From positions 17,197 through 81,196 of the forward strand of contig CAYURI010000002.1 of NCBI GenBank assembly GCA_964447275.1: a stretch of DNA of 64,000 nucleotides, read 5' to 3'. A program made the translations under genes and the position numbers. The DNA comes from an uncultured Muribaculaceae bacterium. GTDB taxonomy: Bacteria > Bacillota_I > Bacilli_A > RF39 > UBA660. Positions 41,545-64,000 of this stretch are shown here, piece after piece. Position 1 is the first letter of the stretch. The number at the start of each line of letters is the position of its first letter. The notes beneath the pieces are model-generated. The model saw only the letters and a program-made list of their open reading frames with translations, was not told where the DNA came from and did not search any database.

Positions 41545-41572
41545 TTGAAAAATCATATTATCGTGATATACT
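41545..41572 (+). promoter_or_regulatory. Promoter with TTGAAA -35 and extended -10 TGATATACT, at the head of the long co-directional cluster
   Basis: TTGAAA at 41545-41550, 16-nt spacer, TG at 41564-65, TATACT at 41567-72. An AAAGGTTGG RBS and the ATG at 41598 follow. Confidence 0.4.
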
Positions 41573-41597
41573 TTTTATAGTAAAGGTTGGTAGTTAT

Positions 41598-42281
41598 ATG
41601 AAATACAGATTTTTTATTATACCGATTTTAGTTTTTGTGTTACTTTTTGCTTGCCCAAAAGTATATGCTACTGATGATTGCAACTATGCTGAGCAGAATA
41701 GACTTAATGCTTTAGCAAGCAATGTTAAAGCAAGTTATAGCGTTTCTGAAGAACCAGAAGTCTATTTTACAATTAATATTAATAATTTAACTGGTGAAAT
41801 CTATGCTATGGTAAAAAGCAGTGAACAATCAGAATATACCGAGTATAAATATAGTGAAGAAAATGCTGGAAGTATATCTTTCACTTCTAGTGAGATATAT
41901 AAAAAGGTTGATTTTTCCATATTAATATATGCTTATAATCCTTATTGTGATCGTAATGAATTAAGAACCATAACAGTTACGACACCAAGATATAATCCGT
42001 ATTATAATTATAGTATTTGCTCTGATGTAAGAGATTTTTATTTATGCCAAAAATGGAACGATTTTGAATTATCTTATGATGAATTAGTGAATCGTGTTAA
42101 TGATTATAAAGAATCTTTAAAAGATGATGATGTTAAAGAAGAAGAAACAAAAGATTCACTTGTTAAACAAGTGATCGATTTTGTTTCCAAACATTATATT
42201 TATTTTGTTAGTGGGGCTGGAGTTATTGTAGTAACTTTAAGTGTAGTATTAATAATTAAAAGAAAAAGGAGAGTCTTGTAG
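41598..42281 (+). CDS. Secreted protein with a C-terminal TM anchor; first gene of the pilus/T4SS-like cluster
   Basis: Signal peptide MKYRFFIIPILVFVLLFACPKVYA. C-terminal hydrophobic anchor VSGAGVIVVTLSVVLII followed by KRKRRVL. Confidence 0.5.
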   Translation: MKYRFFIIPILVFVLLFACPKVYATDDCNYAEQNRLNALASNVKASYSVSEEPEVYFTININNLTGEIYAMVKSSEQSEYTEYKYSEENAGSISFTSSEIYKKVDFSILIYAYNPYCDRNELRTITVTTPRYNPYYNYSICSDVRDFYLCQKWNDFELSYDELVNRVNDYKESLKDDDVKEEETKDSLVKQVIDFVSKHYIYFVSGAGVIVVTLSVVLIIKRKRRVL

Positions 42282-45200
42282 TGAAAAATAAAATTCCAAA
42301 ATTATTAATCTTTGGGTTTTTATCATTTATTGCTTTTGCAATAAATGCTTTTGCTGCTATAACAATATCGCCAACTGGTCAAAGTTATACTGTTAGCAGT
42401 GATTTTGGTGATAAAACTTTAACAAGAACAATTAAAACTTTTAAAACAATTGACAATGACTCGGCTTTCCATGTTTTACCAGATAAATTAATGCCAGGTG
42501 ATGCTGGAGCAGCTAGTTTATATGATTGCGAAAATGGTGGCTATGCTTCATCATCAGAAATTGCGATTATTCAAAGTGGTAAGAAAAATGGCTATAATGA
42601 TATGGAAATTCAAATCGCTTTATATTGCCAAGCGACAACTGGTACATCAGCTAAATCAGATGATGAGTTTTATCAAACGATTTGTTCAAGATATGTAGCT
42701 GGTGAAGATGTTATAGGCAATGGCTTAATGCAAATAAATGATCCTTCAGGATATTTTTTAAGAGGATTACAATTATATAAAAGTGGGGCTTCTACTACGT
42801 ATTATGAAGCAACGACTGGATTTACTGGAATAACTCTTGAATTTGATTGCTCTTCAGGCAAATGTTATTATCCAAATCAAACTGACAAAGTATTGTTAAG
42901 TAGTATTGAGGGATTGAATATTCCTAGTAATGCCAAAATATTATCTGTTACTGAAGAAGGAGCGGATAGTATTGATGTTAGTTATGGTTCAAGAACTGTT
43001 GGCACAGTTTCTTTTAGTGTTGTCGCAACACCAAATAAAAGTATTTGCCCAACTTGTGCTTATGTACAAATAATTGTTGAATATGAATCATCTGATGTTT
43101 TATCTCAACCAGCTTTATGCGCTCCAACGGCAGCAGCTGGTTCTGGAGTTAACATAACTAATAGTAGTAATATGCTCGTTTATAAAACCACGGGTAGTAT
43201 TAAAAAAATATTTACAATTTATTCTGGTAGTGGAAATACGGAAAACAACACAGATACATACAATTCTGTTTTTTATCCACATAGTGTTATTGTTGACTAT
43301 GAAAATAATGATGTTGTTTTAGCAAACTCTATAACAACTATTCCTAATGCTAAAACAACCTGTGGTATTAACACTATTGCTCCAGGAGGATCATTAAAAG
43401 CAACTAGTAATAATGCCATATCTGATGATGAAGAAGATCCATTTAAAGATATATCAACTGATTATTCTAAAATAACAACTGGAACTGCTTGTGATGGCTC
43501 ATCATACAAAGTTTCATCTGATGAAGTAAGTGGTAATGTTGATACCATAATAAATAATCAATATTGTAATATATATTGTAAAGAAGATATAAAAATTGTT
43601 GTGCCTTCTAAAGCAAGAGCAGCTAGTAATGATACTGAAAAAATATTTTCAGGCAGATATTTTACCTTACCAGACCTAAAAGTAGAAGGCAGAAAAACTT
43701 GCGTAGCTGATATTGATATTGAACAATTTTTCTATGATGTTTATGGCAATAAAATAAATATTGGTGATGTATTGTCAGGAAAAACAAGTACAAGAGATCT
43801 ATTAAATAGTGGCGGTGGCAGCAATTATAAGTATATGAATGCTACAAATTGGGGAACCGCCCTAGAGACTGCATATATCGGAATGATAAATAAAACCTAC
43901 ATTGACGAAATTCCATGCAGAAGATATTTTGGGTTTTCTTGTTCTGGTTATGGCGTACCTCTTTGTCCGGGCAAAAAAGTTGATGTTGGCGGTGGCAAAT
44001 GCTGTGATGTTAAAGTTATATTTAACGAAAAAATTTATTCTAATTGTACTTCGAAAATACCCAAATCATATGCCGACTCTATTACAGCTTTATATAGCGT
44101 GTTAATGTTTAAACATTATGAAATTGTGGTACCGACGGCTAAATACGATCCTGGGACTGGTGTAACAATTGAGGAGCAAGATGATAACGGAAACATTTCG
44201 TATACGGATATATATAATTCATTTAATGCAACAAATGCACAATTTGTAAGATATGGAATCCCAAAAACTGTAAACTCAACTAATACAAAAGTTGAATTTG
44301 TTGAGTTGCCTCCAACGGAATATAAAACTAATTCTGATAATAATGAAAAGACTTGTTACCCATTGGATGAGCCTTCACAACCAGATGGCGCAGTATCATG
44401 GGAATGTCTATGCCATACTCAATCGTTAGAAGAAGCAATGCTTGCTTGCGGTCTAAAAGCTACTGGTGATCAAGTTGGCTCGGCAGCAGCAGCGGTAAAG
44501 CATCATATAGCAGTTTACGATGCTATGCGTGATGCTAACTATGCGGCAACCAAGAAGTCTATCGAAGATATATTAGCTTGCTCAGAAGCTTATAAATATG
44601 TTGTATATAATATTAAAACACCAGAAGTAACATTTAATTATTGTGATGATTATAAAATTGATTATAAGTTTACTGGTGGATTAAATGAGAATGTTAAAGT
44701 AGAGTATTGTAAGAATGGTGCTACTTCAATTGATTTTGCTTGTATAGGTGAAGGCCAAACTCAAGAAGCGCCAATTGATGAAATTGATTTTTCGAAATTT
44801 AATCGTCAAATTAGTTATTATGATTGTGGTGATAGCTATTGTAATAGTACAACTATTAAAACTATAACAATACCAATTAATAAATCAGTTAAATTTGAAT
44901 ATACCGCTTCATATCGTGCTAATACAGATACTACGTATTATTCAATTGTACCAAGCGGAGTAGTGAGAACTAAACCAACAAATACTAATTCAATTTTACT
45001 TGGTGAAGATGGTAAGGTATATCCATTATCAATTGGTCAAGTAGGTAATAAAGCTTGTAATTATTCATTTACCTTTAATACAATTGGTGAAACACATTAT
45101 GAAAATTGTTTTCCAGAATTAGAAAAACCAATGGTTTGTAGTTTTGTTTTATATAACGAAATAGTTAATCCAGGAAGTGATGATACAAGTAAAGGTTTAA

Positions 45201-45637
45201 TGTATTTTTATCGTACAATTGATTTGGATGATATTTTCCCAAATAGTAATAATGATTATAGTGGTAAGAACTTAGCGATATTTAGAGAAGTTGGTTCTAA
45301 TTGGAGTAGTGAAAAAGGGGTAGATACGCAAAAAGAAGTTGAAAAAACTGGCGAAGATGTTTATTTAGAAGAGAATTTAGAATATTCATATACTTTAACA
45401 CCAAGACAAATGGCGCGTATTAGAGCATATAATAACGCTCAAGAAAAACGTGGAGTAGGATATGCTGACTTTAATCTTACTTGTGACTCTAAAGGCCAAG
45501 GATGCCGTAGTAGTTTCTTAGATGGTGCTTTAATAGGCTGCGAGAATAAAAGATGTTTTACAGATAATTTAAATAGCAGTCCAGCAGGAAGAGATGCTAG
45601 CTTTAAAAATTATGCTAATAGCACATCTTGGAAGTAA
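42281..45637 (+). CDS. Giant (1118 aa) secreted Cys-rich protein; candidate pilus-associated adhesin or surface protein
   Basis: GTG start overlapping the upstream stop. Signal peptide KIPKLLIFGFLSFIAFAINAFA. Many Cys throughout and no TM anchor. Confidence 0.5.
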   Translation: MKNKIPKLLIFGFLSFIAFAINAFAAITISPTGQSYTVSSDFGDKTLTRTIKTFKTIDNDSAFHVLPDKLMPGDAGAASLYDCENGGYASSSEIAIIQSGKKNGYNDMEIQIALYCQATTGTSAKSDDEFYQTICSRYVAGEDVIGNGLMQINDPSGYFLRGLQLYKSGASTTYYEATTGFTGITLEFDCSSGKCYYPNQTDKVLLSSIEGLNIPSNAKILSVTEEGADSIDVSYGSRTVGTVSFSVVATPNKSICPTCAYVQIIVEYESSDVLSQPALCAPTAAAGSGVNITNSSNMLVYKTTGSIKKIFTIYSGSGNTENNTDTYNSVFYPHSVIVDYENNDVVLANSITTIPNAKTTCGINTIAPGGSLKATSNNAISDDEEDPFKDISTDYSKITTGTACDGSSYKVSSDEVSGNVDTIINNQYCNIYCKEDIKIVVPSKARAASNDTEKIFSGRYFTLPDLKVEGRKTCVADIDIEQFFYDVYGNKINIGDVLSGKTSTRDLLNSGGGSNYKYMNATNWGTALETAYIGMINKTYIDEIPCRRYFGFSCSGYGVPLCPGKKVDVGGGKCCDVKVIFNEKIYSNCTSKIPKSYADSITALYSVLMFKHYEIVVPTAKYDPGTGVTIEEQDDNGNISYTDIYNSFNATNAQFVRYGIPKTVNSTNTKVEFVELPPTEYKTNSDNNEKTCYPLDEPSQPDGAVSWECLCHTQSLEEAMLACGLKATGDQVGSAAAAVKHHIAVYDAMRDANYAATKKSIEDILACSEAYKYVVYNIKTPEVTFNYCDDYKIDYKFTGGLNENVKVEYCKNGATSIDFACIGEGQTQEAPIDEIDFSKFNRQISYYDCGDSYCNSTTIKTITIPINKSVKFEYTASYRANTDTTYYSIVPSGVVRTKPTNTNSILLGEDGKVYPLSIGQVGNKACNYSFTFNTIGETHYENCFPELEKPMVCSFVLYNEIVNPGSDDTSKGLMYFYRTIDLDDIFPNSNNDYSGKNLAIFREVGSNWSSEKGVDTQKEVEKTGEDVYLEENLEYSYTLTPRQMARIRAYNNAQEKRGVGYADFNLTCDSKGQGCRSSFLDGALIGCENKRCFTDNLNSSPAGRDASFKNYANSTSWK

Positions 45638-45653: not shown

Positions 45654-46109
45654 ATGAAAGAAAGTTTATGGGGTTATTGGTTGATTGTTCTAGGAATATT
45701 TGTTATAATCATCATGATGCTAGTACAAGATTTTACAACCACGAATACTCAAGATTACTATCTTTTAAAAGAAGTAACAGAAGCATCAATGATTGATGCC
45801 GTAGATTATGCTTATTATAGACAACATGGTGAAGTGAAAATTAACAAAGAAAAGTTTGTTGAAAATTTCTTAAGAAGGTTTTCGGAAACAATGAATCTTA
45901 ATAAAACTTATCGAGTTGATTTTTACGGAATATATGAGTCACCACCTAAAGTAAGTGTGAAAATTACGACGACGAGTAATACCTTTACAATAGCTGGAGA
46001 TCAAACATCATTTGATATTGTAAATAAATTAGATGCGATATTAGAACTGAAAATTGGCACATCTAGTTATGAAGATAACTATAATATAAATAGTTATGTA
46101 GGAAGTTAA
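45654..46109 (+). CDS. Small N-terminally anchored membrane protein, possibly a pilin-like or minor subunit
   Basis: WGYWLIVLGIFVIIIMMLV hydrophobic N-terminus followed by a polar domain of about 120 aa. Sits between the giant protein and the CpaB-like gene. Confidence 0.35.
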   Translation: MKESLWGYWLIVLGIFVIIIMMLVQDFTTTNTQDYYLLKEVTEASMIDAVDYAYYRQHGEVKINKEKFVENFLRRFSETMNLNKTYRVDFYGIYESPPKVSVKITTTSNTFTIAGDQTSFDIVNKLDAILELKIGTSSYEDNYNINSYVGS

Positions 46110-46125: not shown

Positions 46126-46989
46126 GTGAAATTAGAAAATATTTTAATGTCTTTTAAGAAGTTCTTTTCGAACAAAAACACTGTAACAATAATAGGAGTA
46201 TTGGTAGGTATATTAATATTATACCTAGGCTATAACTGGCGTGTTAAACAAGCGATAACACCGATCTCAGTACCTTATGCTAAGGTCGAAATATCATCTA
46301 GGACTTTAATTACTAGTGATATGATTGGTTATACGCAAGTACCAAAAAGCATGGCTAATGCTAGTAAGAATTTAGTTACTAATTCAGGACTTGTGGTAGG
46401 TAAATATGTTAGTTATGGATCAACAATTCCAGCTAATAGTTTGTTTTATAGCGAGGCTTTAATGTCTGCTGAAGAACAACCAGATTCAGCATTTGCTGAT
46501 ATACCTGATGGGTATACAATATATTCACTTGGCGTAAACACTCATACTACTTATGGTAATTCTATTTATCCAGGAAATTATATTGATTTATATTTAAAAG
46601 CAATTGATGATACAGGGAAAATTATTTATGCGAAATTAATTGAATCAATTGAAGTATTAGCTGTTAAAGATAGTAATGGTGAACATGTTTTCGAATCAAC
46701 TGTCGAAACACGTAGTCCAGCTGAACTTCTATTCGCGGTTCCTGATGATATGTATTTATTATTAATGAAAGCTGAGTATATAACTACTAATCAAGTAGAA
46801 GTTGTTCCAGTACCTAGAAATGCTGCTTATTCAGCTAATCCTGGTGAAACATTAGTTAAAAGCTCATATTTAAAAGAATTTATTTTAGCGAAAACAACTT
46901 ATGTACCAGAAGATGTTACAACTAATCCAACAACTGAAACTACTGATACAACAAATACACCAACTACGGAGACAACAACCACAAATTAA
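46126..46989 (+). CDS. Flp pilus assembly protein CpaB/RcpC-like (SAF domain)
   Basis: N-terminal TM TVTIIGVLVGILILYLGY. SAF-like VPYAKVEISSRTLITSDMIGYTQVPKSM...LVTNSGLVVGKYVSYGSTIPANSLF. Thr/Glu-rich C-terminal tail. Confidence 0.55.
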   Translation: MKLENILMSFKKFFSNKNTVTIIGVLVGILILYLGYNWRVKQAITPISVPYAKVEISSRTLITSDMIGYTQVPKSMANASKNLVTNSGLVVGKYVSYGSTIPANSLFYSEALMSAEEQPDSAFADIPDGYTIYSLGVNTHTTYGNSIYPGNYIDLYLKAIDDTGKIIYAKLIESIEVLAVKDSNGEHVFESTVETRSPAELLFAVPDDMYLLLMKAEYITTNQVEVVPVPRNAAYSANPGETLVKSSYLKEFILAKTTYVPEDVTTNPTTETTDTTNTPTTETTTTN

Positions 46990-47015: not shown

Positions 47016-48134
47016 ATGAATGATGCAATTTTCTCGCAAATTGATTTTGGACCGGTTAAAGAGTTTTTAGATAATGATGATATAACTGATATTAGTTATA
47101 CTAATAATGGTCAAGTATGGTTAAAAACATTATCTAAAGGCGTATATAGTATTGATCGTCCAGAAATTAATAATGCTTTCATCGAAAAACTAGCCTTTCA
47201 ATGTTCTAATGTTATGGGTAAGACCTTTAATATGGCTCATCCAGTCTTAGATGCTGAAAGTGCTGAGCTTCGTATGAATTTCATCCATGAATCAATTTCT
47301 TCTAACGGGATTGCTTGTGTTATTCGTAAAACACCTGCTAAAATTAGATTAAACAAGGAGAAATTACTTGATGAAAAATATATTACTTTAGAATTACATG
47401 ATTTTTTAATTAAATGTGTAGAAGGTCATTGTAATATAATCGTCTCTGGTGAAACAGGTAGTGGTAAAACTGAGTTAGTTAAATACTTAGCTAGTTTTAC
47501 GAAAGAAAATGAAAAAGTTATCACCATTGAAGATACCCTAGAACTTCATTTAGATAGAATATTTCCCCATCGTGATATTGTTGCCATGAAAATTAATAAT
47601 ATTATGTCTTATAGTGATATTTTAGTGGCTTGTATGAGACAAAACCCAAGATGGATACTTTTATCCGAAGTTCGTAGTGCTGAAGCAGTAATGGCCGTAA
47701 GAAACTCTATTTCATCAGGTCATAATATCTTATCAACTATTCACTCTGATAAAGCCGAAAACATTCCAATGAGAATGTATTCTTTACTAGAAACCAACTT
47801 AGACATTGATCAATTCTTAAAGTCTATTCATCGTTATGTTCAACTTGGTGTTCATGTTAGAGGTTATATGAGTAAAGAACTTGGTAGATTTCAAAGAGAA
47901 ATTGTTGAAGTAGTTGAGTTTTATGTTGATGATGATAACAATGCTAAAAGCAATATGATATTTAGAAAGAGTCCTGATGGTAAAGTGGCTATTCAAAATC
48001 CAACTAAATATTTAATTGGCTATATGGAAGCCCAGGGAGTATCAATACCGGAAAACATCTTTTCTTCAGTAACTAAAACTGAAGAAGTAAAACCAAGTTT
48101 TATAATAAATAAAGAAGAAGTCGAAGTTTTATAA
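47016..48134 (+). CDS. Tad/Flp pilus secretion ATPase CpaF/TadA (VirB11/GspE superfamily)
   Basis: Walker A IIVSGETGSGKTELVKYL, Asp box ITIEDTLELHL, Walker B WILLSEVR, His box HNILSTIHS. 372 aa. Confidence 0.75.
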   Translation: MNDAIFSQIDFGPVKEFLDNDDITDISYTNNGQVWLKTLSKGVYSIDRPEINNAFIEKLAFQCSNVMGKTFNMAHPVLDAESAELRMNFIHESISSNGIACVIRKTPAKIRLNKEKLLDEKYITLELHDFLIKCVEGHCNIIVSGETGSGKTELVKYLASFTKENEKVITIEDTLELHLDRIFPHRDIVAMKINNIMSYSDILVACMRQNPRWILLSEVRSAEAVMAVRNSISSGHNILSTIHSDKAENIPMRMYSLLETNLDIDQFLKSIHRYVQLGVHVRGYMSKELGRFQREIVEVVEFYVDDDNNAKSNMIFRKSPDGKVAIQNPTKYLIGYMEAQGVSIPENIFSSVTKTEEVKPSFIINKEEVEVL

Positions 48135-48153: not shown

Positions 48154-49047
48154 GTGGAACTAATATTATTAATGGTCATCGCGATATTTGTTATGTCTTA
48201 TCGTAAGAATAATGGCGAAAATGTTTACAAGTTTATTGTTAATCAAGTAAATACTGCTTATAACAAATATGCACCATATAGTTTTAAAGAAGTAAGAGAA
48301 AAAGTAAAAGCTTTAGGTCAAGAATACACAACTAAACAATATACGACTCAAGTAATATTATTTGGTGTTGTAGCTGGTGGTATTGCTTACTTATACTTCT
48401 TTAGTTTAATTTGGGCAATTATATATGCTATTATAGCTATTATGTTTATTCCTTATTTAGCTTATTTAAGATGCAAAAGAATCTATAGTGAGTTTATTTT
48501 TGAACAAATTCAAGTATATACAACAAACGTTATTATGGAATTTAATACGACGCAAAGTTTTGTAAAATCCTTAGAAGGTGTTAGAGATTCTGGAATATTA
48601 GAAAACCCAGTCTTAGAAGACTTAAAAATGATGATTGATCTATCTTACCAAAATGGTACAATTGATGAATCAATTGAATATATGAATAATAAATATCCAT
48701 TCTTTATGGTTAAAAATATGCATCAATTATTCTTACAAATTACGAAAGAAGGTTCTAAAGATTCAGGTGAATCTTTAGAAAATATGGCATTAGATATCGA
48801 TATGCTGGTTGAAGGGGTATATCGTGACAGAATGGATCGTCAAACCTTCCATAAAACTTTTGTTACTTATGGACTAGCTTTATATATGTTAGTTATGTTT
48901 ATGCAATTTTTATTAGGTAATGACAATTATTTGGAATTACTAGATTTATGGTATGTCCAAATTCTTCTTCATGCCATTATTATTTTAAATAGCTATTTCT
49001 TAATCGGTGGAGAGAAATACTATAATGAAGATGTGGGGGTAGAATAA
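48154..49047 (+). CDS. TadB-like inner-membrane platform protein (T2SS-F/GspF domain)
   Basis: GTG start after an AGAGGTG RBS. N-terminal TM, paired TMs, a cytoplasmic helical domain and C-terminal TMs. Position is right after the CpaF-like gene. Confidence 0.5.
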   Translation: MELILLMVIAIFVMSYRKNNGENVYKFIVNQVNTAYNKYAPYSFKEVREKVKALGQEYTTKQYTTQVILFGVVAGGIAYLYFFSLIWAIIYAIIAIMFIPYLAYLRCKRIYSEFIFEQIQVYTTNVIMEFNTTQSFVKSLEGVRDSGILENPVLEDLKMMIDLSYQNGTIDESIEYMNNKYPFFMVKNMHQLFLQITKEGSKDSGESLENMALDIDMLVEGVYRDRMDRQTFHKTFVTYGLALYMLVMFMQFLLGNDNYLELLDLWYVQILLHAIIILNSYFLIGGEKYYNEDVGVE

Positions 49048-49048: not shown

Positions 49049-49837
49049 ATGTACTTTGAAATTTTATTAATTGGTGTCATTATTTATTTCTTACTAGATT
49101 TTAGTGGTCGATTAAGTACTAATCGTTTTATTGAAGATAATGAAACTTATTTTCGTAAATTAAAAGAAAATGATTATGATTTTTATTGCTATGCTAAATA
49201 TGGTAATGGGATTGATGTTGACAAATTGTTTTCAATTCGTTTAAGAAATGGCTTATTATCAATTATTGTTTTATTATTCTTATTCTTAACTAAGTTAAGC
49301 TATGTAAATGTCATATTTTCCCTATTAGTTGGGTTTGGAATCTTTAAATTAGATTATGTAAGCAAGCGTAATTATTATAAAAAGCATTTACATGATATTG
49401 ACCTTTTATTACCATATTATTTAAAAAGCTTAGAAATCTTAATTCAACATTATACTGTGCCAGTTGCGATGGGTAAATCAGTTGAAGATGCCCCAGCGAT
49501 ATTCAAAGATGGTTTAGTAAAGTTGGTTGAAAAGATTGATGCCGGAGATGCTTCGATTGAGCCATATATGGAATTTGCAAGAGAATACCCAGTAAGAGAC
49601 TCAATGCGTATGATGCGACTTTTATATCGTTTAAGCTTAGGTAGACAAGACAGAAAACAAGAACAATTATTAACATTTTCCAAAACAATATCTAACTTAC
49701 AACAAAAATCTCGCGAAACTAAATATAAAGAACGTTTAGAAAAAATGGAAAGCAAAACGATGTATATGTTAGTATCAACTGGAGCTGGCGTTATGTTATT
49801 ATTAGTTTTATCAATATTAATGATGTTTAATATGTAA
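49049..49837 (+). CDS. TadC-like inner-membrane platform protein
   Basis: Same architecture as the preceding gene, with 1-nt spacing. Confidence 0.5.
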   Translation: MYFEILLIGVIIYFLLDFSGRLSTNRFIEDNETYFRKLKENDYDFYCYAKYGNGIDVDKLFSIRLRNGLLSIIVLLFLFLTKLSYVNVIFSLLVGFGIFKLDYVSKRNYYKKHLHDIDLLLPYYLKSLEILIQHYTVPVAMGKSVEDAPAIFKDGLVKLVEKIDAGDASIEPYMEFAREYPVRDSMRMMRLLYRLSLGRQDRKQEQLLTFSKTISNLQQKSRETKYKERLEKMESKTMYMLVSTGAGVMLLLVLSILMMFNM

Positions 49838-53686: not shown

Positions 53687-53746
53687 TAAACTTCTTGGCA
53701 TAAAAATGAATATATGTTAGAATAAAATATGATAGGGAGTGTAAAC

Positions 53747-56418: not shown

Positions 56419-56733
56419 GTGTATATAATACCAGCAAACACGAAGAAATCGATGTTGATATTAGGATTTTTTACAGTATTAGACTTGATAATATTTATTA
56501 CTGGTGTTGGGTTAACCTTGATATGCTTAATAGCATTAAAAACATCTGCACTGGGATTCATGATACTAGAGTTAATGCCAGCTTTAATAGCATTATTACT
56601 TGTAACTCCAGTACCTTATTATCATAATATGCTGCAATTGATGCGAAATTTCTTTAATTTCTTTGGTAAGAGAAGAAGATACATATGGAAAGGATGGTGT
56701 TGGCATGACGACGATACAGTCAAACCAATTTAA
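56419..56733 (+). CDS. VirB3/PrgI-like small membrane protein
   Basis: About 100 aa with two hydrophobic helices. GTG start after an AAAGGAGGAAT RBS. Directly precedes the VirB4-like gene. Confidence 0.4.
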   Translation: MYIIPANTKKSMLILGFFTVLDLIIFITGVGLTLICLIALKTSALGFMILELMPALIALLLVTPVPYYHNMLQLMRNFFNFFGKRRRYIWKGWCWHDDDTVKPI

Positions 56734-57316
56734 AGCAGTTCAAAATACAATAACTAATAGTTCTAGTTCAAATACTCAATCAAAGTATTCAGAAGACTGG
56801 GTGCCAGTTAAAAATATTTTGAATGGCATGATTCATTTAGAAAATGGCGAATTTGTAACGGGTGTAAAAGTAACGCCTAAGAATATATTCATTCTTGATC
56901 AAGATAGTCAGAATAACATTATCTTTAATCTAAGAACATTTTATAATGTTATTGATTATGAGTTTTGGCTTATTATAGCGGACAGACCAGTTGATATAAA
57001 TATTTTCTTATCACAGTTACAAGTTTTATATAACGATACACCAAATCCATTAGTAAGAAAATTAATTATGCAGGATATTAATAAAGCTAATTCATTTATG
57101 AGTACGCAATTAAATGTTGTTGATACTGAGTATTTCATTTTGTTTAAAGAAAAGAAAATGGAACTTATTCAAAAACGTATTCATAGTTTAATAAGCGGAC
57201 TAGCTAATTGTCAAATGAATTCAACTCAAGTAACAAATGAGGATTTAAGGATGCTAATTGATAACTTCTTTAATGGTGGTTTAAGAACCGAGTTTAGGAC
57301 GGTGACGACAGAATGA
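56705..57316 (+). CDS. VirB4/TraE-family N-terminal domain, encoded as a separate ORF (start uncertain)
   Basis: DWVPVKNILNGMIHLENGEFVTGVKVTPKNIFILDQDSQNNIIFNLRTFYNVIDYEFWLIIADRPVDINIFL matches the N-terminal domain pattern of Gram-positive VirB4 homologues (Tn916 Orf16/TcpF-type). Its stop overlaps the next ATG (ATGA). Confidence 0.5.
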   Translation: MTTIQSNQFKAVQNTITNSSSSNTQSKYSEDWVPVKNILNGMIHLENGEFVTGVKVTPKNIFILDQDSQNNIIFNLRTFYNVIDYEFWLIIADRPVDINIFLSQLQVLYNDTPNPLVRKLIMQDINKANSFMSTQLNVVDTEYFILFKEKKMELIQKRIHSLISGLANCQMNSTQVTNEDLRMLIDNFFNGGLRTEFRTVTTE

Positions 57317-59097
57317 ATTTAAAATCAGAATTAGCCCCAAAGGGGATTGAATTTAGAAGTCAAGAATTCACGATTAGTGGTAAATATGCTGTAATTCTTA
57401 CAGTAGTAGGCTTTCCTAAATCTATTTATCCAGGTTATTTGGCAGAAGTATCTAATTTATCGGGTGTTAAAATAGTAATTAAACATATTCCTATTGAATT
57501 TTCGACATTGTCAAAAATGTTAAATAAAGAGATAGCAGATTTAAAAGTTAGATATCAAAATGAAAATGATAAAACTATTCAAGAAAGAATTAGGCAAGAT
57601 TATGAATCATTAGAAGAATTTATTCAAATGCTTGCTGCTACTCAATCAAGAATATATGACTTCCAAATGCATATTATGATTACTTCTGATACAAAAGAAG
57701 AATTAGAAGTTAAGAAGATGCAATTACGTAACTACTTAGATGCTATGGGTATGAGAGCTATACCATTAATGTTTGAACAAGAAAAAGTACTTAAATCAAT
57801 GGTACCAATATTCCCTAAACAGGATATTGAAAACAGAGTGGGAACACCAATTCCTTCTGTTACAGTAGCAGCAATGTATCCATTTGTCTTTGATAGTATT
57901 AAAGATCCAGGATTGTCTACTTTATTAGGGTTTGACTTCTCTGGTGGTGTAATATTATTTAATCAATTCTTATATCAAATTAAAAAAGAATATAACCGTA
58001 ATAATGCTAATATGATTATTCTTGGTACTAGTGGTAGTGGTAAATCTACAGCTGCTAAATTACTTTTAAGGAACCATATTAGAAATGGTTATCAAATAGT
58101 TGTAATTGACCCTGAAGGCGAATTACAAGAAATGACTAAAACGATGGGTGGTAACTTTATTGATCTAGGTAAGGGTGGAGAATTTGGGATGGTAAACCCT
58201 CTAGAAGTAATAGTTGACGCTGATGAAGAAGAACTAGAACAAGGATTAGGTTACACTATCTTAACAAGGACTTTACAAAGCTTAAAAGCTTTTATGAAAT
58301 ATTACACTCCTTCAATTGAAGAAGATGTTTTAACAATGTTTAGTGAAGTAGTTCAAGATACTTATAAACGTTATAAAATTGATTTTGATACGAACTTCTC
58401 TAAATTTAAACCGGAAGATTTCCCAACATTCAGTGATGTTTATGCAACAATTAAAGGAAGACTTCTAAGTATGCCTGAACATAGTCATGAAAAAGATGTT
58501 ATGGAACGCTTAGAATTAAAGATTAGACCACTTGTTAAAGAATTAAAATATTACTTTGATGGTCATACAACAATTGAAAGTAATACTGAGTTTATCGTAT
58601 TTAATATTAAAGAGTTAATGAACTCTGATGAAAATATTCGTAACGCTTTATTCTTTAATATATTAAAATATGCTTGGGGTTTATGTTTAGATAAATCAAT
58701 TAATACTATTATGATGGTCGATGAAGCGCATGTCTTACTTTCTAGTCGTAATGAACTTGGTGCTGAATTCTTAGCCCAAATTCAAAGACGTAGTCGTAAA
58801 TATAATACGGGGACAATTATGATTACTCAACAACCAACTGATTTCGCAGCACCTAATATTATTGTTCATGGTAAAGCCATCTTTGATAACGCAGCTTATT
58901 ATCTAGTAATGGGACTAAAGAAACAAGCAGTTGAAGATTTATCAAAATTAATTGACTTAAACGACAACGAAAGAGAAAGCATTAAATATTACAGTCAAGG
59001 TCAAGCATTATTTGTTTGTGGTAGTAGAAGAATGAGAATAAATGTCGTATTAACTCAAGAAGAATTAGATTCATTTGGTACAGGTGGCGGATTATAA
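57313..59097 (+). CDS. VirB4/TraE/TcpF-family conjugation-type ATPase (middle and ATPase domains)
   Basis: LAPKGIEFRSQEFTISGKYAVILTVVGFPKSIYPGYL, Walker A NANMIILGTSGSGKSTAAKLL, VIDPEGE, Walker B MMVDEAHVLL, IMITQQPTDF. Confidence 0.8.
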   Translation: MNLKSELAPKGIEFRSQEFTISGKYAVILTVVGFPKSIYPGYLAEVSNLSGVKIVIKHIPIEFSTLSKMLNKEIADLKVRYQNENDKTIQERIRQDYESLEEFIQMLAATQSRIYDFQMHIMITSDTKEELEVKKMQLRNYLDAMGMRAIPLMFEQEKVLKSMVPIFPKQDIENRVGTPIPSVTVAAMYPFVFDSIKDPGLSTLLGFDFSGGVILFNQFLYQIKKEYNRNNANMIILGTSGSGKSTAAKLLLRNHIRNGYQIVVIDPEGELQEMTKTMGGNFIDLGKGGEFGMVNPLEVIVDADEEELEQGLGYTILTRTLQSLKAFMKYYTPSIEEDVLTMFSEVVQDTYKRYKIDFDTNFSKFKPEDFPTFSDVYATIKGRLLSMPEHSHEKDVMERLELKIRPLVKELKYYFDGHTTIESNTEFIVFNIKELMNSDENIRNALFFNILKYAWGLCLDKSINTIMMVDEAHVLLSSRNELGAEFLAQIQRRSRKYNTGTIMITQQPTDFAAPNIIVHGKAIFDNAAYYLVMGLKKQAVEDLSKLIDLNDNERESIKYYSQGQALFVCGSRRMRINVVLTQEELDSFGTGGGL

Positions 59098-59105: not shown

Positions 59106-59744
59106 GTGGTGATAGTTTTGGCAGAAACAAATGCAAATAATTTAAATAACGAATCCTTCGATCAAAGTTATGGTCGAAGGGTTTTGCGTGGTGGCAAACA
59201 ATCACAGATAGTTAAATTACCAGGAGCAACAACCGGTAACAGGTTTAATTATTCTAATGCTTTAAGAAGTAATGAAAAAAGAAAAGAAAGCGAAGAATTA
59301 ACAAAAGGAAGCCAAGAGCAAGAGGATGATGGTGAAGGGAATAAGTCTAATTTAGGCTCAAAAGCTCAAGAAGCAGCAGTTGGTATTGCAGCAAAAACTT
59401 TTTTACCACCTGGATTACAAGGAATAGGTAAATCTATTGCTAATAATGTATTAAATAGTAGTGGTGGTGTATCTGAAGCTGCAGAAAAGCTTTTAAAAGC
59501 TAAAAAAATGAAAATCTACTTATATGCTGGAATTGCTTTCTTTTCTTTTATTTTAATAATAGCAATAATATTTGCAGTCTCTTCAACTGGTGGCACTGAA
59601 TCATCTGGAGCTGGATTTAATGAAGTCTCAGAATATGAATTGAACGAGAATTATGATGAGATGCCGGAAGAAGATAATGCAGAAGACTCTAATGTTGAAG
59701 TTGTAGAAAACAGTGAGGTAAATAATAATGAAACAGCACAGTAA
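59106..59744 (+). CDS. Bitopic membrane protein with a polar/acidic C-terminus; possible VirB8-position scaffold (tentative)
   Basis: ORF with GTG/TTG start choices. One TM helix (IYLYAGIAFFSFILIIAIIFAV) near the C-terminal third and an acidic tail. Confidence 0.35.
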   Translation: MVIVLAETNANNLNNESFDQSYGRRVLRGGKQSQIVKLPGATTGNRFNYSNALRSNEKRKESEELTKGSQEQEDDGEGNKSNLGSKAQEAAVGIAAKTFLPPGLQGIGKSIANNVLNSSGGVSEAAEKLLKAKKMKIYLYAGIAFFSFILIIAIIFAVSSTGGTESSGAGFNEVSEYELNENYDEMPEEDNAEDSNVEVVENSEVNNNETAQ

Positions 59745-62700
59745 TAATTTTAAAATTATTAATATAATAGTCATTATTATAGCTTTTATTTCTAGCTTTC
59801 TTTTTAGTGTTGAACAAAACAAAATAAATTATAGTTTTGAAACAGAAGTTAATGTTATTTATAAAAATGCTTCAAATGATATGACTGAAGAAGAAAAAGA
59901 AGAATACTATCAAGACTTTTGGGAAAAAATATTTTATGAAAAAAATATTAAACCAAGTAATAAAAAGTTTTATCGTCGTTTTAATCGAGCTTACTATTGG
60001 TGGCGTTTAAGAGCTGGAGATTCTGTGGATGACCTGGCAGTTTTAGAAGCATCTAAACCGCACTTATTAGCAGCTTTATTTTTAGATTATGCACCTGATA
60101 ACTTTAACAGTGATATTTCTGAGTGGGCAGTTAATGGAGATAAAGACAATATATATATAAATGATGAAGATTTTGCTTATCAAGTCTGTGATAATTATAT
60201 AGATGAAAATGGGGCTTCTGACAATGATAGTAATTGTAGTAGTGGTGGTTTAGAAGACAAAGAATATGCTCCAAAAACAATACTTGATGTTATAGCTCGA
60301 GCCATTTCTGAAGCAATTGCAAAAGCCCAAGAATATTTAGATGATAAAGACACAATAAGAGCACTAGGTAGGCACTTGTTTGTTTACCAGCCAGTTTGTT
60401 ATTTAACAAAAGAATTGGATGATGGTACTACTCAAAAAATACCTTATGAGTATGCTAAAAAATATTCTTTTGATGAGATTTTAGATTTAATTTCTCAAAT
60501 AAAATCTTTAAAAGATATTTTTAGCATTTTCCCTGAATATACTGATTGCGTGGGCCCTGATAGTAAATGGCTAGTAAAAAATGGTGGAGATGCGATTAAG
60601 ACCGAATTTGATTTAGATGATATTGTAGATTTATGTTATTTTTATAAACATTTAGTTGAAAGTGATTATTTTGAAAACCACGTTCATTTTAAAGCTGATT
60701 TTGATAATATAAAAAAATATACTAAAACTGACCAAGAATATTTAGTAGAATCAAGTAAATTAAAAGTTGGTTTGGCTAGGCAAATAATTGATATAGTTGA
60801 TTTAGCAAATGATGATGATCCGGTTTATGATTCAAGTGTTTCAGCAGCTAGTGGAGCTTCTGTTAGCTATAGTTTATCAAAAGATTTGTATATTACACTT
60901 AGTAATAGTAGAAAAGATGATAATGGTAATTTGATAAAAAATGGATCTTATCCAATAGATCAATATGTTGAAGGAGTACTAGATGCTGAAGTTCTTGGGG
61001 TTTTCTATAGTTCTGGAGAATCAGAAGCAACTATATACACAGCTCTTCAAGCTAATGCTATAGCCATAAGAACTTATGCTTTAAAGGTTACAAACGAAGG
61101 CGTAAAATCAATTTCTAATAGTACTGATAATCAAGTTTTTACTGATCAATATTTTAAAGAGACTGGTACAAAATATATGCTGGCTAGAAACGCAGCTTTA
61201 TCTACTACTGGTCAAGTATTGACAGAAAATGGCCAACTTATAAAGTCAGAATATAGCAGTTTTAGTGAATGGACTAATTATTATTGCGAAAATGGGTTAT
61301 GTTATACTTCATACCAAAAAATAGGCTCAAAAAATAGTGGTACTTTTCATACGGTAATTGCCAAAAGTAAATGGGGTTTATCTGGTGGTCACAATCGTGG
61401 AATGAGTCAGTGGGGCTCATTGTATTTAGCAAGTCAGGGGTATACTTATACAGGAATTTTAGAAAACTTTTATGCTGAAAATGTTACTCTTGCTAATTAT
61501 GATTACAGTTATAAATCGACTGATAATGTTACCTTAGGTGAATATGGTGTTAAAGAAGCAATGTTGGTATGTGATTTGTTTACTTCTAGTGAGTACTCTG
61601 ATATTAGAGATTTACTTGGTGATAACGTTACTTTAAAAATACCTCTAAGACTTACAAGTACAAAATATCAATCATCATCAGGTTATAAAGCTTCTAGCGG
61701 CGGAACAAATGGGATTAGTTATAATAGATTTAATGGCGTTCATGGTCAAGTATTTCAGTGTGAATGGAATCCAGAACATACAGCACTTTTATATGCTTGC
61801 AACGGAGATAAAGGGTATATAATTAACAATCAAGACTATAAAAGAAATCAAGAAACAAATCAATACCAAACATATAAAAGGAATTCAGATGGTACATTAG
61901 CCAAAGATAGTGAAGGTAACCAATTATATGTTGAAACAGACAATGCTAGCAAAAGGATTTTGCTTGATGTAAGTGAAGCAAGTCGAGCTGATGTTTATCT
62001 CCCTAGCGCGATAGTATGGCAATATGCACTAAACACGTCTACTATAAAAATACCTACTGAAGGTGGATGGGACGATCACGGATATATCGAGGCGGTTACT
62101 GGGTTTTATCCGCATTATGTAAGTGGTACATTGCCTTCTACCATCACTTATAGGCCAGTAATAAATTATGATGGAACAGCTAAAACCGAGACCATTTCAA
62201 CTGGGTTAACATGTCCTAGTAGTGATTATGAATTAGTTGCTGAAAACTGCTGTTTAGTTACTGATAAAACCCAATGTGAACCTGCTATTGAAGGAACTAC
62301 TGAAAGAGTTGTTTATGAGACAGACAATAAAAAGCCTTCAGCAGATGAGCTATTTGCTTCTAGATATGATACAATGCTAGTCGCTGGTGAAGCTGTAAAT
62401 TTAGAGACAGAATATAATACGATTTTATTTACTGGTGTTATTGATTCAGCTGCAGTTGCTATTACTAGTTCTGACCCATCAAGATTTTGGGATACTGATC
62501 ATGCTGATACAATTTTATATATGTATGTTCCTGATTATAATGATATAGATCCTGAACTTCAGCCATACTTTTCTAATGAGGTAACAAATATTTTGCAGCT
62601 AACCTCAGCTAGCAGGAGTGGCAATATTAGAGATGGAGTAGACTTAGTCGCAGCTAAAGGTGAAACTCCAACAGCTGGTTTTATTAATGTAACAGAGTTT

Positions 62701-63291
62701 TTAGAATCTTTAGGATTTACAAATATTGGTGGAATGGCTAATGGTGCTTGGGATGATCTTGAAGCTCATCACTGGCAACTAGCTTGTGATTATTCTAATT
62801 CTCTTACTTTGGCTGGTATGTCATTGTCTGATTTGGAAAGAGATTACTGTTGTAAAGGGCTATTTCATGAAAATCCTAGTTATGACTCATATGATGCAGG
62901 TACCGGAAGAAGTTATCGTGAAACTTCATCAGATTTAGGTGGATATTTCAGTGATGCTTGGAAAATAGAGTTTTGTAACGAGACTATTGAAGGTGCTAAA
63001 TTAGTTAAAGCAGCTTGTAAAGCAGCATTTGCTGAACAAAGTGCTTGTATATCTCAATGTTATGCAAGTCTTAAAGAAGAAGATGCTTCAGCTTTAGGCT
63101 ATAAATGGAATTCAAAAGGCTATTGGTATAATGCCAAAGGACCAATTTTTGATTCAAATAAAACAGCAGTAGGATGTACATATAATACTGGTGATTTTGG
63201 TGCTACCGTTTCAGAAACTAGAAAAATCGGCCCAGAAGGGGAATGCCCTTGTAGTATATTAGGAAATTCTGGAGGCAGTTCTAATGCTTAA
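59728..63291 (+). CDS. 1187-aa membrane-anchored protein with a SpoIID/LytB-type peptidoglycan-remodelling domain; candidate T4SS-associated cell-wall hydrolase (VirB1 functional analogue)
   Basis: N-terminal TM IINIIVIIIAFISSFLFSV. SpoIID/LytB signatures EVLGVFYSSGESEATIYTALQANAIAIRTYAL, NQVFTDQY, SGGHNRGMSQWGSLYLASQGYTYTGILENFY. Large additional Cys-containing extracellular regions. Confidence 0.6.
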   Translation: MKQHSNNFKIINIIVIIIAFISSFLFSVEQNKINYSFETEVNVIYKNASNDMTEEEKEEYYQDFWEKIFYEKNIKPSNKKFYRRFNRAYYWWRLRAGDSVDDLAVLEASKPHLLAALFLDYAPDNFNSDISEWAVNGDKDNIYINDEDFAYQVCDNYIDENGASDNDSNCSSGGLEDKEYAPKTILDVIARAISEAIAKAQEYLDDKDTIRALGRHLFVYQPVCYLTKELDDGTTQKIPYEYAKKYSFDEILDLISQIKSLKDIFSIFPEYTDCVGPDSKWLVKNGGDAIKTEFDLDDIVDLCYFYKHLVESDYFENHVHFKADFDNIKKYTKTDQEYLVESSKLKVGLARQIIDIVDLANDDDPVYDSSVSAASGASVSYSLSKDLYITLSNSRKDDNGNLIKNGSYPIDQYVEGVLDAEVLGVFYSSGESEATIYTALQANAIAIRTYALKVTNEGVKSISNSTDNQVFTDQYFKETGTKYMLARNAALSTTGQVLTENGQLIKSEYSSFSEWTNYYCENGLCYTSYQKIGSKNSGTFHTVIAKSKWGLSGGHNRGMSQWGSLYLASQGYTYTGILENFYAENVTLANYDYSYKSTDNVTLGEYGVKEAMLVCDLFTSSEYSDIRDLLGDNVTLKIPLRLTSTKYQSSSGYKASSGGTNGISYNRFNGVHGQVFQCEWNPEHTALLYACNGDKGYIINNQDYKRNQETNQYQTYKRNSDGTLAKDSEGNQLYVETDNASKRILLDVSEASRADVYLPSAIVWQYALNTSTIKIPTEGGWDDHGYIEAVTGFYPHYVSGTLPSTITYRPVINYDGTAKTETISTGLTCPSSDYELVAENCCLVTDKTQCEPAIEGTTERVVYETDNKKPSADELFASRYDTMLVAGEAVNLETEYNTILFTGVIDSAAVAITSSDPSRFWDTDHADTILYMYVPDYNDIDPELQPYFSNEVTNILQLTSASRSGNIRDGVDLVAAKGETPTAGFINVTEFLESLGFTNIGGMANGAWDDLEAHHWQLACDYSNSLTLAGMSLSDLERDYCCKGLFHENPSYDSYDAGTGRSYRETSSDLGGYFSDAWKIEFCNETIEGAKLVKAACKAAFAEQSACISQCYASLKEEDASALGYKWNSKGYWYNAKGPIFDSNKTAVGCTYNTGDFGATVSETRKIGPEGECPCSILGNSGGSSNA

Positions 63292-64000
63292 AGGTGAAAA
63301 TATAAAATTATGGTTGTTTATTTTAGTGATTTCAATTGTTGTAGTAGGAGTAACTATTTTCTTTACAAATAAGAAAATTGCTTATGAAAAAAGCAAAGTA
63401 GAGACTTATATAGTTTATAATTATGACTATGCATATTATTATGATAATAAAGTATGGAATAAAATAACTGACATGTCTTTTGTTAATCAAAAAGAATTTA
63501 ATGTTTATAGTAGTAATAGCTATTTTAAGACATTATCAGCAAGTATAAATAAATATACTAGAAAATTAATTTATAATGATGGAACATCTCAATATGCAAA
63601 CTTAATTGGCATAAATAGCAATAAAACAATTTTTATAAGTAAATATAATGTAGAAAATTTATCCAACGAAGATTTAAATTTTGTAAAAAGTTATTTAAGT
63701 AATAAGAAACAGACATATGTAGAAGGTCAAACAGAAGTAATAATGTATAAATTAGATATTGATGCTGATTTAATACTAGAAAAGATATTTCAAATTTATT
63801 ATAAAGTAAACTCTAATTGTTATAATTATATATTAATTAAAGATGGTGAAAATACAGAAGTGGTATTGTCATATTCAGCATTAGAATCAGAAATTAAATA
63901 TAAAAAAGCATCGATTAATTTAATAATTGATGCTGATTTAAATGAAAAGAAAGAGATTTTAATAGTTGAAAAAGGTTATGAATATTCAAAATTATTACTA
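63284..64000 (+). CDS. 5' part of a further membrane-anchored protein. The ORF is open to the window end and is absent from the track because no stop is reached.
   Basis: ATG at 63284 overlaps the previous stop (ATGCTTAA). LWLFILVISIVVVGVTIFF TM. 239 codons in frame to position 64000. Confidence 0.5.
   Translation, partial: MLKGENIKLWLFILVISIVVVGVTIFFTNKKIAYEKSKVETYIVYNYDYAYYYDNKVWNKITDMSFVNQKEFNVYSSNSYFKTLSASINKYTRKLIYNDGTSQYANLIGINSNKTIFISKYNVENLSNEDLNFVKSYLSNKKQTYVEGQTEVIMYKLDIDADLILEKIFQIYYKVNSNCYNYILIKDGENTEVVLSYSALESEIKYKKASINLIIDADLNEKKEILIVEKGYEYSKLLL

Follow-up and report, generated by a model that had tools for sequence, protein, structure and literature searches.

How Gram-positive donors find and hold their recipients without a conjugative pilus is an open question, and it is raised again by a gene cluster that begins at position 41526 of a 64,000-nucleotide (nt) stretch of contig CAYURI010000002.1 (hereafter the window, to which all coordinates refer). 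An earlier note on this DNA described the cluster as a complete Tad/Flp pilus set joined to the core of a Gram-positive type IV secretion system (T4SS), and proposed that it might be an undescribed type of apparatus. Is the machine new, and do its two blocks belong together? By homology and gene order the design of the machine exists already, with little notice taken of it, in known conjugative plasmids of Bacillus and Enterococcus, and is not of a new kind. The locus is best read as a chromosomal relative of the mating apparatus of pXO2/pAW63/pBT9727 and pHTbeta/pMG1, made of two co-inherited sub-assemblies that would serve contact-dependent export, most likely of DNA, a reading to which we give a probability of roughly 0.6. 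What is new here is its chromosomal, relaxase-less and lineage-wide form, together with the explicit recognition that the protein called 'VirB11' in these plasmids is part of a module of pilus type.

Homology to conjugative plasmids

The best matches of the secretion ATPase (gene at 47016) in the plasmid collection came from Enterococcus faecium pHTbeta/pMG1-like plasmids, Bacillus anthracis pXO2, and plasmids of Paraclostridium, Peribacillus, Listeria and B. thuringiensis (E 1e-30 to 1e-43), with genuine CpaF (from proteobacterial megaplasmids) and VirB11 ranking far behind (1e-15 to 1e-18). The nearest plasmid ATPases, those of the pHTbeta/pXO2 class (E about 1e-40), are annotated as 'CpaF/VirB11 family'. 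Furthermore, the window locus is collinear with the tra regions of pHTbeta, pXO2, a Paraclostridium plasmid and a Peribacillus plasmid. The first half of the plasmid order comprises a large surface adhesin, small proteins, the ATPase, two membrane proteins of ~250-280 amino acids (aa), and proteins of 120 and ~48 aa with hydrophobic N-termini; the second half comprises TrbC/VirB2, VirD4, a VirB6-like protein, DUF5592, an open reading frame (ORF) of ~200 aa, VirB4 and a wall hydrolase. The gene table of pAW63 has the same order, with CDS22 named VirB11 (PMC1196294), and this plasmid is experimentally conjugative and transfers efficiently in liquid mating (PMC9673590). For pMG1, broth mating is indicated by the title of a study cited in PMC13492992.

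Homology extends over both halves of the order and is clear for at least six proteins. Hidden Markov models (HMMs) built from the locus detected the plasmid ATPase (6e-50), VirB4 (4e-31) and VirD4 (1e-59). Profile-profile comparison with hhalign gave probabilities (Prob) of 96.5% for the TadB-like protein against the first membrane protein of the pHTbeta class (E 8e-10, enriched profile), 95% for the TadC-like protein against its plasmid counterpart, 93.8% for the DUF5411 protein against the ~120-140-aa gene just upstream of the plasmid ATPase (E 1.7e-7) and 91.5% for the VirB6-like protein against plasmid proteins of the pLS20_p028 family (E 8.8e-7). Homology is weaker for the minor-pilin-like proteins (the 50612 protein against the 120-aa gene of pHTbeta, hmmsearch E 1.1e-5, Prob 50%) and for the VirB3-like protein (against plasmid DUF5592, hmmsearch E 3.2e-4, Prob 50%).

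These relatives run counter to two statements of the earlier note, namely that Firmicute conjugation systems lack components of the CpaF/TadBC type, and that the apparatus may be of an undescribed type. In the literature, no paper was found that describes the neighbours of 'VirB11' in this plasmid class as a pilus-type module. Searches on RF39 with VirB4, pilus or T4SS, and on Tad/CpaF with VirB4 in Gram-positives, returned nothing relevant. Surveys covering the type IV pili of Gram-positives and the type IV filament superfamily are silent on the pairing.

Chromosomal setting of the cluster

From 41526 to 64000 the ORF list holds 21 ORFs, all on the + strand with intergenic gaps of -71 to 63 nt, in agreement with the earlier description of at least 21 tightly spaced co-directional genes, and the ORFs are found where that description placed them. 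The cluster runs past the window end, which falls inside the gene for a 251-aa bitopic protein. Its continuation can be read from two other contigs: Logan contig L001, which carries a SpoIID protein identical to that of the window and shows DNA past the window end, and a contig of GCA_030154545.1 (L007), which encodes a VirB4 99% identical to the window's and shows the complete cluster end. The SpoIID gene is followed there by genes for a bitopic protein (251/253 aa), a lipoprotein-like protein (233/237 aa) and a 730-aa VirD4 coupling protein; the partial VirD4 ORF on L001 is 97% identical to the VirD4 of L007. It is correct that no VirD4, relaxase, integrase or prepilin peptidase is visible within the window, but VirD4 begins ~0.8 kb beyond its end. 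VirD4 is present in 30 of the 33 related loci that have enough downstream DNA.

After VirD4, L007 continues with DedA and then RmuC, and the downstream flanks in other species hold rhodanese, PDDEXK_2 and RelA, or RmuC again. The upstream flank of the window locus consists of housekeeping or ordinary chromosomal genes (BipA/TypA, tRNA-His, a PASTA protein, Tex, an ABC-F protein and KsgA). The GC content of the cluster (~0.28-0.36) is the same as in the remainder of the window, and megablast of the 22.5-kb locus against plasmid and phage collections gave zero matches. The locus is chromosomal and flanked by housekeeping genes, and is not the edge of a conventional integrative and conjugative element (ICE).

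Elsewhere in the window, amid co-directional housekeeping genes, a short opposite-strand stretch with reversed GC skew (29560-31470, - strand) carries genes for a DUF5050 protein of 348 aa and a protein of 270 aa with a BRO-N domain; this may be a small segment that was inserted or came from a phage.

Distribution and co-inheritance of the two blocks

Homologues of the CpaF-like ATPase and of VirB4 number in the thousands each (more than 7000 for the VirB4 ATPase ORF). The best 120 of each are 75-99% identical and come from metagenome-assembled genomes named 'Bacilli bacterium', with contigs of up to 1.19 Mb; for VirB4, the best 120 are 79-99% identical and 594-596 aa long. Orthologues of the 47016 ATPase that are 75-97% identical occur in more than 100 protein clusters. 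When one genome per species was scanned with the TadC-like alignment, a relative was found in at least 485 species representatives, and the ATPases show ~75-80% identity across these species. Among the names of the carrier records are uncultured Bacilli or Tenericutes, Firmicutes bacterium CAG:582, Mycoplasma sp. CAG:776 and Candidatus Coprovivens, the last filed by NCBI under Bacilli incertae sedis; we take the carrier group to be the GTDB order RF39. Several carrier contigs (L011, L012, L022, L051 and others) bear the title 'uncultured Muribaculaceae bacterium', and the name of this Bacteroidota family on contigs with a Bacilli-type locus is almost certainly a mislabel.

The pairing of the blocks recurs across this group. 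Among TadC-anchored loci with a full 10 kb of downstream sequence, 24 of ~47 were paired: 17 showed VirB6 and VirB4, and 7 showed VirB6 with VirB4 beyond the flank. Conversely, 17 of the 31 VirB4-anchored metagenome loci with at least 9 kb of upstream sequence showed TadB/C, and 3 more showed the TadZ-position gene. Over the 25 loci holding both, pairwise distances of the pilus block and the T4SS block were strongly correlated (Mantel r = 0.80-0.88), and correlations within blocks (0.84-0.86) were no stronger than those between them. The two blocks are co-inherited modules, usually but not always contiguous, and the distances behave like vertical descent of the locus. The division into a pilus-type module and a Gram-positive T4SS core, as first drawn in the earlier note, is upheld, and with a pairing that recurs in many species the adjacency of the two is not a matter of chance. 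Synteny in related genomes gives a mixed answer on the link between them, with the pairing recurring and each block also found alone, so that strict physical dependence is not required.

Some of the stand-alone and rearranged arrangements deserve description. A very abundant lineage (CpaF cluster P0069, listed in 249 collection blocks) still has a pair of VirB2-like genes after the pilus block (L002-L004, 16498-17264); VirB6, VirB4 and VirD4 are absent from this neighbourhood, which continues with a convergent gene and UvrA, and a 507-aa minor-pilin-like protein is fused to a Peptidase_M15 domain. Two species (L034 and L036) have a VirD4 gene whose end lies immediately before the pilus block (4-1188 and 105-1208, respectively), and VirB2-like genes reappear ~5 kb downstream of it, behind unrelated genes (18983-20600 and 18507-20124), which indicates a rearranged or duplicated arrangement of the blocks. 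L058 has the hydrolase and VirD4 without VirB4 or VirB6. Neither an integrase nor a relaxase was found in the flanks of stand-alone or rearranged blocks.

Components of the pilus-like block

The features of the cluster are collected in Table 1. The protein of the first gene, which has no Pfam or NCBIfam match, occupies the same position in ~60 related loci at 22-65% identity. The large surface protein that follows is also conserved in position and fast-evolving in sequence (22-69% identity). Its slot is that of the large surface adhesins of pHTbeta, pXO2/pAW63 and related plasmids, which are annotated as SpaA-like, thioester or isopeptide adhesins, and position alone makes it a candidate adhesin; the pAW63 counterpart is listed as 'cell surface protein' (PMC1196294). 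The DUF5411 protein opens with an 'MKESxWG' leader followed by a hydrophobic helix.

Table 1. Coordinates and supporting matches of the features of the cluster (TM, transmembrane)
Feature	Size (aa)	Position	Strand	Basis or remark
First gene, Cys-containing protein	251	41526-42281	+	N-terminal signal/TM segment, C-terminal TM anchor
Cys-rich secreted surface protein, candidate adhesin	1118	42281-45637	+	No family match
DUF5411 protein	151	45654-46109	+	PF17424 E 6.7e-61
CpaB/RcpC-like bitopic protein	287	46126-46989	+	Concordant matches below cut-offs
CpaF/VirB11-family secretion ATPase	372	47016-48134	+	T2SSE PF00437 E 1.7e-27
TadB-like polytopic platform protein	297	48154-49047	+	Profile-profile comparison only
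Second polytopic protein, weakly TadC-like	262	49049-49837	+	Profile-profile comparison
Prepilin-like protein	82	49885-50133	+	Leader MKEATG, ~20-residue hydrophobic helix, small Cys-rich head
Minor-pilin-like protein, first paralogue	146	50151-50591	+	Leader M-R-E/Q-A/S-I-G
Minor-pilin-like protein, second paralogue	159	50612-51091	+	Leader M-R-E/Q-A/S-I-G
Conserved cytoplasmic protein, TadZ position	330	51110-52102	+	After pilin genes in 52 related loci
Promoter-like TTGACA-17-TAAAAT		52113-52141	+	11/12 positions match; inside 63-nt gap between blocks
VirB2-type T4SS pilin, first	107	52166-52489	+	
VirB2-type T4SS pilin, second	377	52553-53686	+	
VirB2-type T4SS pilin, third	243	53729-54460	+	
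VirB6-like polytopic channel protein	634	54481-56385	+	NF045889 Mbov_0396 E 3.5e-8
VirB3-like small membrane protein	104	56419-56733	+	Directly before VirB4 in all loci examined
VirB4 N-terminal domain ORF		56663-57316	+	NF045975 VirB4_plasma positions 94-276, E 5.7e-13
VirB4 ATPase domain ORF	594	57313-59097	+	NF045975 positions 294-891, E 4.5e-105
Bitopic protein, VirB8-like position	212	59106-59744	+	29-31% identity to closest relatives
Secreted cell-wall hydrolase, SpoIID/LytB domain, VirB1 analogue	1187	59728-63291	+	PF08486 E 1.8e-7; TIGR02669 E 3.4e-16
Bitopic protein, 5' part of gene	251	63284-64000	+	Cluster continues beyond window
VirD4 coupling protein	730	starts ~64802 (window-equivalent, ~0.8 kb past window end)		PF02534, PF10412, PF12696 in L007

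The Tad assignments of the earlier note fared unevenly. For the ATPase, the T2SSE match supports a secretion ATPase of the broad family, but the protein is equally near CpaF (8rkd, E 3.6e-19) and VirB11/HP0525 (1g6o, E 4.9e-18), so these matches do not single out CpaF/TadA. The CpaB-like protein has concordant matches to TIGR03177 (E 7.6e-9, 35 bits against a cut-off of 71) and to RcpC (PF16976, E 1.1e-5, 25.7 bits against a cut-off of 28.8), both below the curated cut-offs, and a sub-threshold match to two genuine CpaB sequences (hhalign Prob 59%, E 9.5e-5).

The first platform protein (48154) has no Pfam, NCBIfam or PDB sequence match. A profile-profile match emerged once its alignment was enriched with distant relatives found by exhaustive search of the species representatives: against genuine TadB/TadC references (Rhizobium and Cupriavidus Tad loci) the enriched profile reached Prob 94.0% (E 1.4e-7, 154 columns), with an alignment that spans the cytoplasmic domain and the following helices, and eight unrelated families used as controls gave E >= 0.02. 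Before enrichment, hhalign of the shallow 48154 alignment was not significant, either against the plasmid proteins or against the TadC-like protein. A pSymA match was dropped as a Tad reference because it proved to be the VirB11 of a classical VirB operon. Pfam T2SSF (PF00482) matched neither 48154 nor 49049, nor 45 TadC-like relatives, the plasmid homologues or 10 distant TadB-like relatives, and the profiles of 48154, 49049 and the 330-aa protein found nothing meaningful among PDB sequences. The TadB claim is supported in part, and the TadC claim lacks statistical support against genuine Tad proteins.

The N-terminus of the 49885 pilin, MKEATGELNMTV, is almost unchanged between species, each of which has 1-3 paralogues; the residues after the MKEATG leader are ELNMTVITV... 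The protein has no family match, and hhalign found no similarity to the single Rhizobium Flp compared. The 50151 and 50612 proteins are paralogues (hhalign E 6.7e-49). All three carry a common leader, M-[KR]-E/Q-[AS]-x-G, followed by ~20 hydrophobic residues, and a similar leader is found in the DUF5411 protein. These M[KR]ExxG N-termini are prepilin-like, yet they do not have the Flp motif.

Several related loci carry additional genes around this block. In 31 of ~80 related chromosomal loci (e.g., L005 3536-5107 on the - strand), the gene immediately before the pilus-like block is divergent and encodes a CPBP/Rce1-like intramembrane protease, in most cases accompanied by a metallophosphatase gene. 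This gene is absent from the window; pHTbeta and the Peribacillus plasmid also carry a CPBP-family gene within their transfer regions (L091 5425-5868; L093 3223-3699). As these loci have no A24 prepilin peptidase, the CPBP/Rce1-like protein is a speculative candidate for cleaving the leaders of the M[KR]ExxG proteins. Genes for GT2 and a YfhO-family membrane glycosyltransferase stand between the TadC-like gene and the pilin genes in L020 (10870-14285) and L023 (10656-14134), and a YfhO-family gene stands downstream of the TadZ-position gene in L059 (14598-17024), which hints at glycosylation of pilins or surface proteins. In L020 the surface-protein and DUF5411 genes are, in addition, partly duplicated in tandem.

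Components of the T4SS block

The internal promoter proposed at 52113 is present as a motif, but such matches are not enriched in the sequence (120 against 111 +/- 11 in shuffles), so the site can be called only promoter-like. No terminator-like site was found in the 63-nt gap between the blocks. The three paralogous membrane modules noted earlier downstream of it can now be assigned as VirB2-type T4SS pilins: they have a common C-terminal module of two TM segments, PF18895 (T4SS_pilin) matches 16 of 20 VirB2-like family members (best E 3.9e-6), and their plasmid counterparts match TrbC at 4e-15. The 377-aa and 243-aa proteins have Cys-rich secreted N-terminal domains in addition.

The VirB6-like assignment of 54481 is sustained by a weak Mbov_0396 match, by a match to the pLS20_p028 family in NCBIfam (E 4.9e-4) and by the plasmid comparison above. 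The VirB3-like assignment is favoured by position and by the match to DUF5592, itself weak. VirB4 is indeed encoded as two ORFs, and because all related loci examined keep the split, it reflects the true gene organisation and is not a frameshift. The ATPase ORF also matches the CD1110 family (E 3.5e-48), Pfam AAA_10 and P-loop_TraG, and orthologues of the N-domain ORF carry PF26593 (TraC-like). With its TTG start at 56663, the latter ORF shares 71 nt with the VirB3-like gene; the true start may be an in-frame ATG at 56705, the coordinate given in the earlier note, which would cut the overlap to 29 nt. That the plasmids have the same split is unsupported, as their ~200-aa ORF before VirB4 is not similar to the N-domain ORF.

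The 212-aa bitopic protein has no Pfam, NCBIfam or PDB match, and the 251-aa bitopic protein, searched as a single sequence, found nothing meaningful among PDB sequences. The SpoIID domain of the hydrolase was correctly recognised in the earlier note. The hydrolase slot differs by species with its neighbours unchanged: SpoIID here, NlpC/P60 elsewhere, and M23 with glucosaminidase in L058 (L008 11870-13873; L058 13582-15555; L129 15224-16504).

Proposed mechanism and alternative explanations

In the reading preferred here, the first sub-assembly would be a type-IV-pilus-like module made of the CpaF/VirB11-family ATPase, the TadB-like and second platform-type proteins, the CpaB-like protein and a set of four or five proteins that each have a short M[KR]ExxG leader and a hydrophobic helix, preceded by the large Cys-rich surface protein. 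It would build a short surface fibre or pseudopilus, and fibre and adhesin together would hold a partner cell. The second sub-assembly would be a Gram-positive T4SS channel of VirB2-like pilins, VirB6, VirB3, the two-part VirB4, the cell-wall hydrolase and VirD4. The hydrolase would open the cell wall, and VirB4 and VirD4 would drive the substrate through the VirB6/VirB3 channel into the contacted cell. DNA is probably that substrate, because all detectable relatives are DNA-conjugation systems and VirD4 is retained.

A number of observations weigh against this reading. The identity of the locus proteins to plasmid proteins is at most 32%, and VirD4 lies at the cluster end in the window-type locus, as opposed to before VirB6 in the plasmids. 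The T4SS block lacks pilus genes within 10 kb upstream in 11 of the 31 VirB4-anchored loci, where ABC transporter or FemAB genes precede it, and in many species the pilus block is followed directly by PcrA/UvrD, AddAB or YfhO. No relaxase or integrase was found in the scanned window ORFs or within 10 kb in related loci with Pfam tables, and no oriT was seen in the window or within that distance of the same loci; with none of the three nearby, transfer of DNA by the locus is something that we infer. On the pilus side, the 49885 pilin lacks the G/XXXXEY motif of Flp, as E-Y is missing at +5/+6, and the 49049 protein reaches a Prob of just 37-39% against genuine TadB/C. The 50151 and 50612 proteins show no similarity to a genuine TadE (hhalign Prob < 1%), nor does the 330-aa protein to Cupriavidus CpaE (Prob < 1%), although these are weak negatives because the CpaE, TadE and Flp comparison sets were single sequences; the 330-aa protein also has no Pfam, NCBIfam or PDB match. 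No A24 prepilin peptidase (TadV) was found among the locus ORFs and the 20 upstream ORFs scanned, and tblastn with one TadV against the window, a weak test, found nothing. Finally, AlphaFold models from two runs were too uncertain to judge the platform fold. The 'complete' Tad set of the earlier note was thus overstated, and its TadE-like and TadZ-like labels have no match to stand on.

The alternative that survives best, which we nevertheless consider unlikely, is that two independent neighbours have been placed side by side, an ordinary adhesion pilus operon and a separate T4SS with no common function. The loci in which either block stands alone (roughly half of the TadC-anchored loci lack an adjacent T4SS, and the 11 VirB4-anchored loci above lack the pilus genes) are what it would predict, as is the promoter-like site at the block junction. 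It does not account for the recurrence of the same order in distantly related conjugative plasmids, where the whole stretch is a tra region (PMC1196294), or for the ATPase having as its nearest plasmid relatives tra-region ATPases and not chromosomal-type Tad ATPases. Furthermore, the blocks co-evolve, and loci that lack VirB6 and VirB4 still have VirB2-like genes beside the pilus block.

Because no relaxase was found, and because lineage-wide chromosomal conservation is unlike that of a typical mobile element, domestication of the locus for uptake of DNA or nutrients, or for effector delivery, is possible. An uptake organelle of a reduced-genome lineage, the next of the rivals and an unlikely one in its turn, would have parallels in the Helicobacter ComB T4SS, the archaeal Ced importer and Tad-dependent transformation in Micrococcus. 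Its chromosomal location and very wide conservation, the strong purifying selection on both ATPases, the lack of a relaxase or integrase nearby and the carrier contigs of ~1.2 Mb, which suggest small genomes, are all consistent with such a role. Set against this, a full-length VirD4 is nearly always present, and VirD4-type coupling proteins feed substrates outward and are absent from ComB; the closest relatives of the locus are, moreover, export-type conjugation systems.

Contact-dependent translocation of proteins (effectors or toxins) into bacteria or host cells ranks lower again, and we think it improbable. The large, fast-evolving Cys-rich secreted proteins and the variable extracellular domains on the VirB2-like pilins suggest diversifying surface interactions that would suit it, as would the lack of a relaxase and a lineage-wide conservation that conjugative elements do not usually show. 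Against it, the locus has no recognisable candidate genes for effectors or immunity proteins, and all detectable homology is to DNA-conjugation systems. The idea that the window holds the 5' part of a conventional ICE whose remainder lies downstream, which the earlier note had offered as an alternative for the VirB4 block and which the lack of VirD4, relaxase and integrase in a window ending inside the cluster had allowed, is largely refuted by the flanks, the megablast result and the uniform GC content given above, by the lack of an integrase in the flanks, by an occurrence in at least 485 species representatives where an ICE would be patchy, and by distances that behave like vertical descent.

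Significance

To our knowledge, the 'VirB11' of the pXO2/pAW63/pHTbeta class has never been assigned a role. Because this ATPase travels with a TadB/C-like platform and with proteins that have prepilin-like leaders, the comparison suggests that these systems, unusually efficient at transfer in liquid, include a pilus or pseudopilus step. The plasmids concerned are tractable; pHTbeta spreads vancomycin resistance, and pXO2 carries the anthrax capsule genes. In addition, a whole order of uncultured small-genome bacteria of the human and animal gut keeps a 25-kb version of the locus in the chromosome under strong purifying selection, and this order-wide retention suggests that exchange between cells is central to how they live.

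A broader proposal, which we put forward tentatively as possible, is that the pilus-type module is integral to this monoderm T4SS class, and that RF39-type Bacilli have fixed the system, relaxase-less, in the chromosome and repurposed it as a lineage-defining organelle of contact-dependent exchange. If this were true, the module would be the Gram-positive counterpart of the conjugative pilus, and the organelle could serve to pass on chromosomal DNA, to take up DNA or nutrients, or to inject effectors into other cells, with its small-genome hosts dependent on it.

Comparison with known systems

The resemblance to archaeal Ups/Ced drawn in the earlier note can be kept as an analogy. Ced and Ups likewise use a VirB4-like ATPase and a VirB6-like channel with a type IV pilus for DNA exchange, and CedD gives a weak NCBIfam match (E 1.5e-11). 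In the archaeal case the two loci lie apart, DNA is imported, and VirD4 is lacking. The nearest functional precedents for a pilus-T4SS pairing, closer than Ups/Ced, are by analogy the IncI1 R64 thin type IVb pilus and the PAPI-1 pilus, in which a conjugative T4SS comes with genes for a type IV pilus that serves mating-pair formation in liquid; PAPI-1 appears among the references of PMC13492992. Both belong to Gram-negatives, and their type IVb machinery has a PilQ-type ATPase, with PilR as platform and PilU as peptidase; kinship in sequence with the window locus is not expected.

The Mycoplasma ICE T4SS (Mbov_0396/Mbov_0397 families) supplies the best NCBIfam match both for VirB4 (352 bits over positions 294-891, in addition to the N-domain ORF) and for the VirB6-like protein, but the locus scores under the equivalog cut-offs (590 and 70). 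We know of no secretion-ATPase or pilus module in Mycoplasma ICEs, which are integrative elements.

With Tad/Flp systems (e.g., Caulobacter Cpa, Aggregatibacter Tad and Rhizobium pRL22b5, L174) the locus shares an ATPase of the broad family, a platform protein that is TadB-like by profile comparison, a sub-threshold CpaB, and a number of small proteins in which a hydrophobic helix follows a short leader. It differs in having no A24 peptidase, Flp G/XXXXEY motif, secretin or Pfam T2SSF match, in an ATPase as near VirB11 as CpaF, in TadZ- and TadE-position proteins without a match, and in being tied to a T4SS.

The closest comparison is with the pXO2/pAW63/pHTbeta/pMG1 tra regions. These are plasmid-borne, whereas the window locus is chromosomal, with no replication, relaxase or oriT genes seen nearby; the relaxase and oriT that the class carries on the same element were not found within the scanned ORFs and 10-kb flanks with Pfam tables. 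Unlike the plasmids, the window locus has extra CpaB-like and 330-aa cytoplasmic proteins, three VirB2-like genes and a SpoIID-type hydrolase, and the Cys-rich pilins of window-type loci measure 75-100 aa, compared with ~48 aa in the plasmids. Locus and plasmids nevertheless have in common the surface protein, the DUF5411-like protein, the ATPase with its two membrane proteins and small proteins with hydrophobic N-termini, VirB2, VirB6, VirB3, VirB4, a hydrolase and VirD4.

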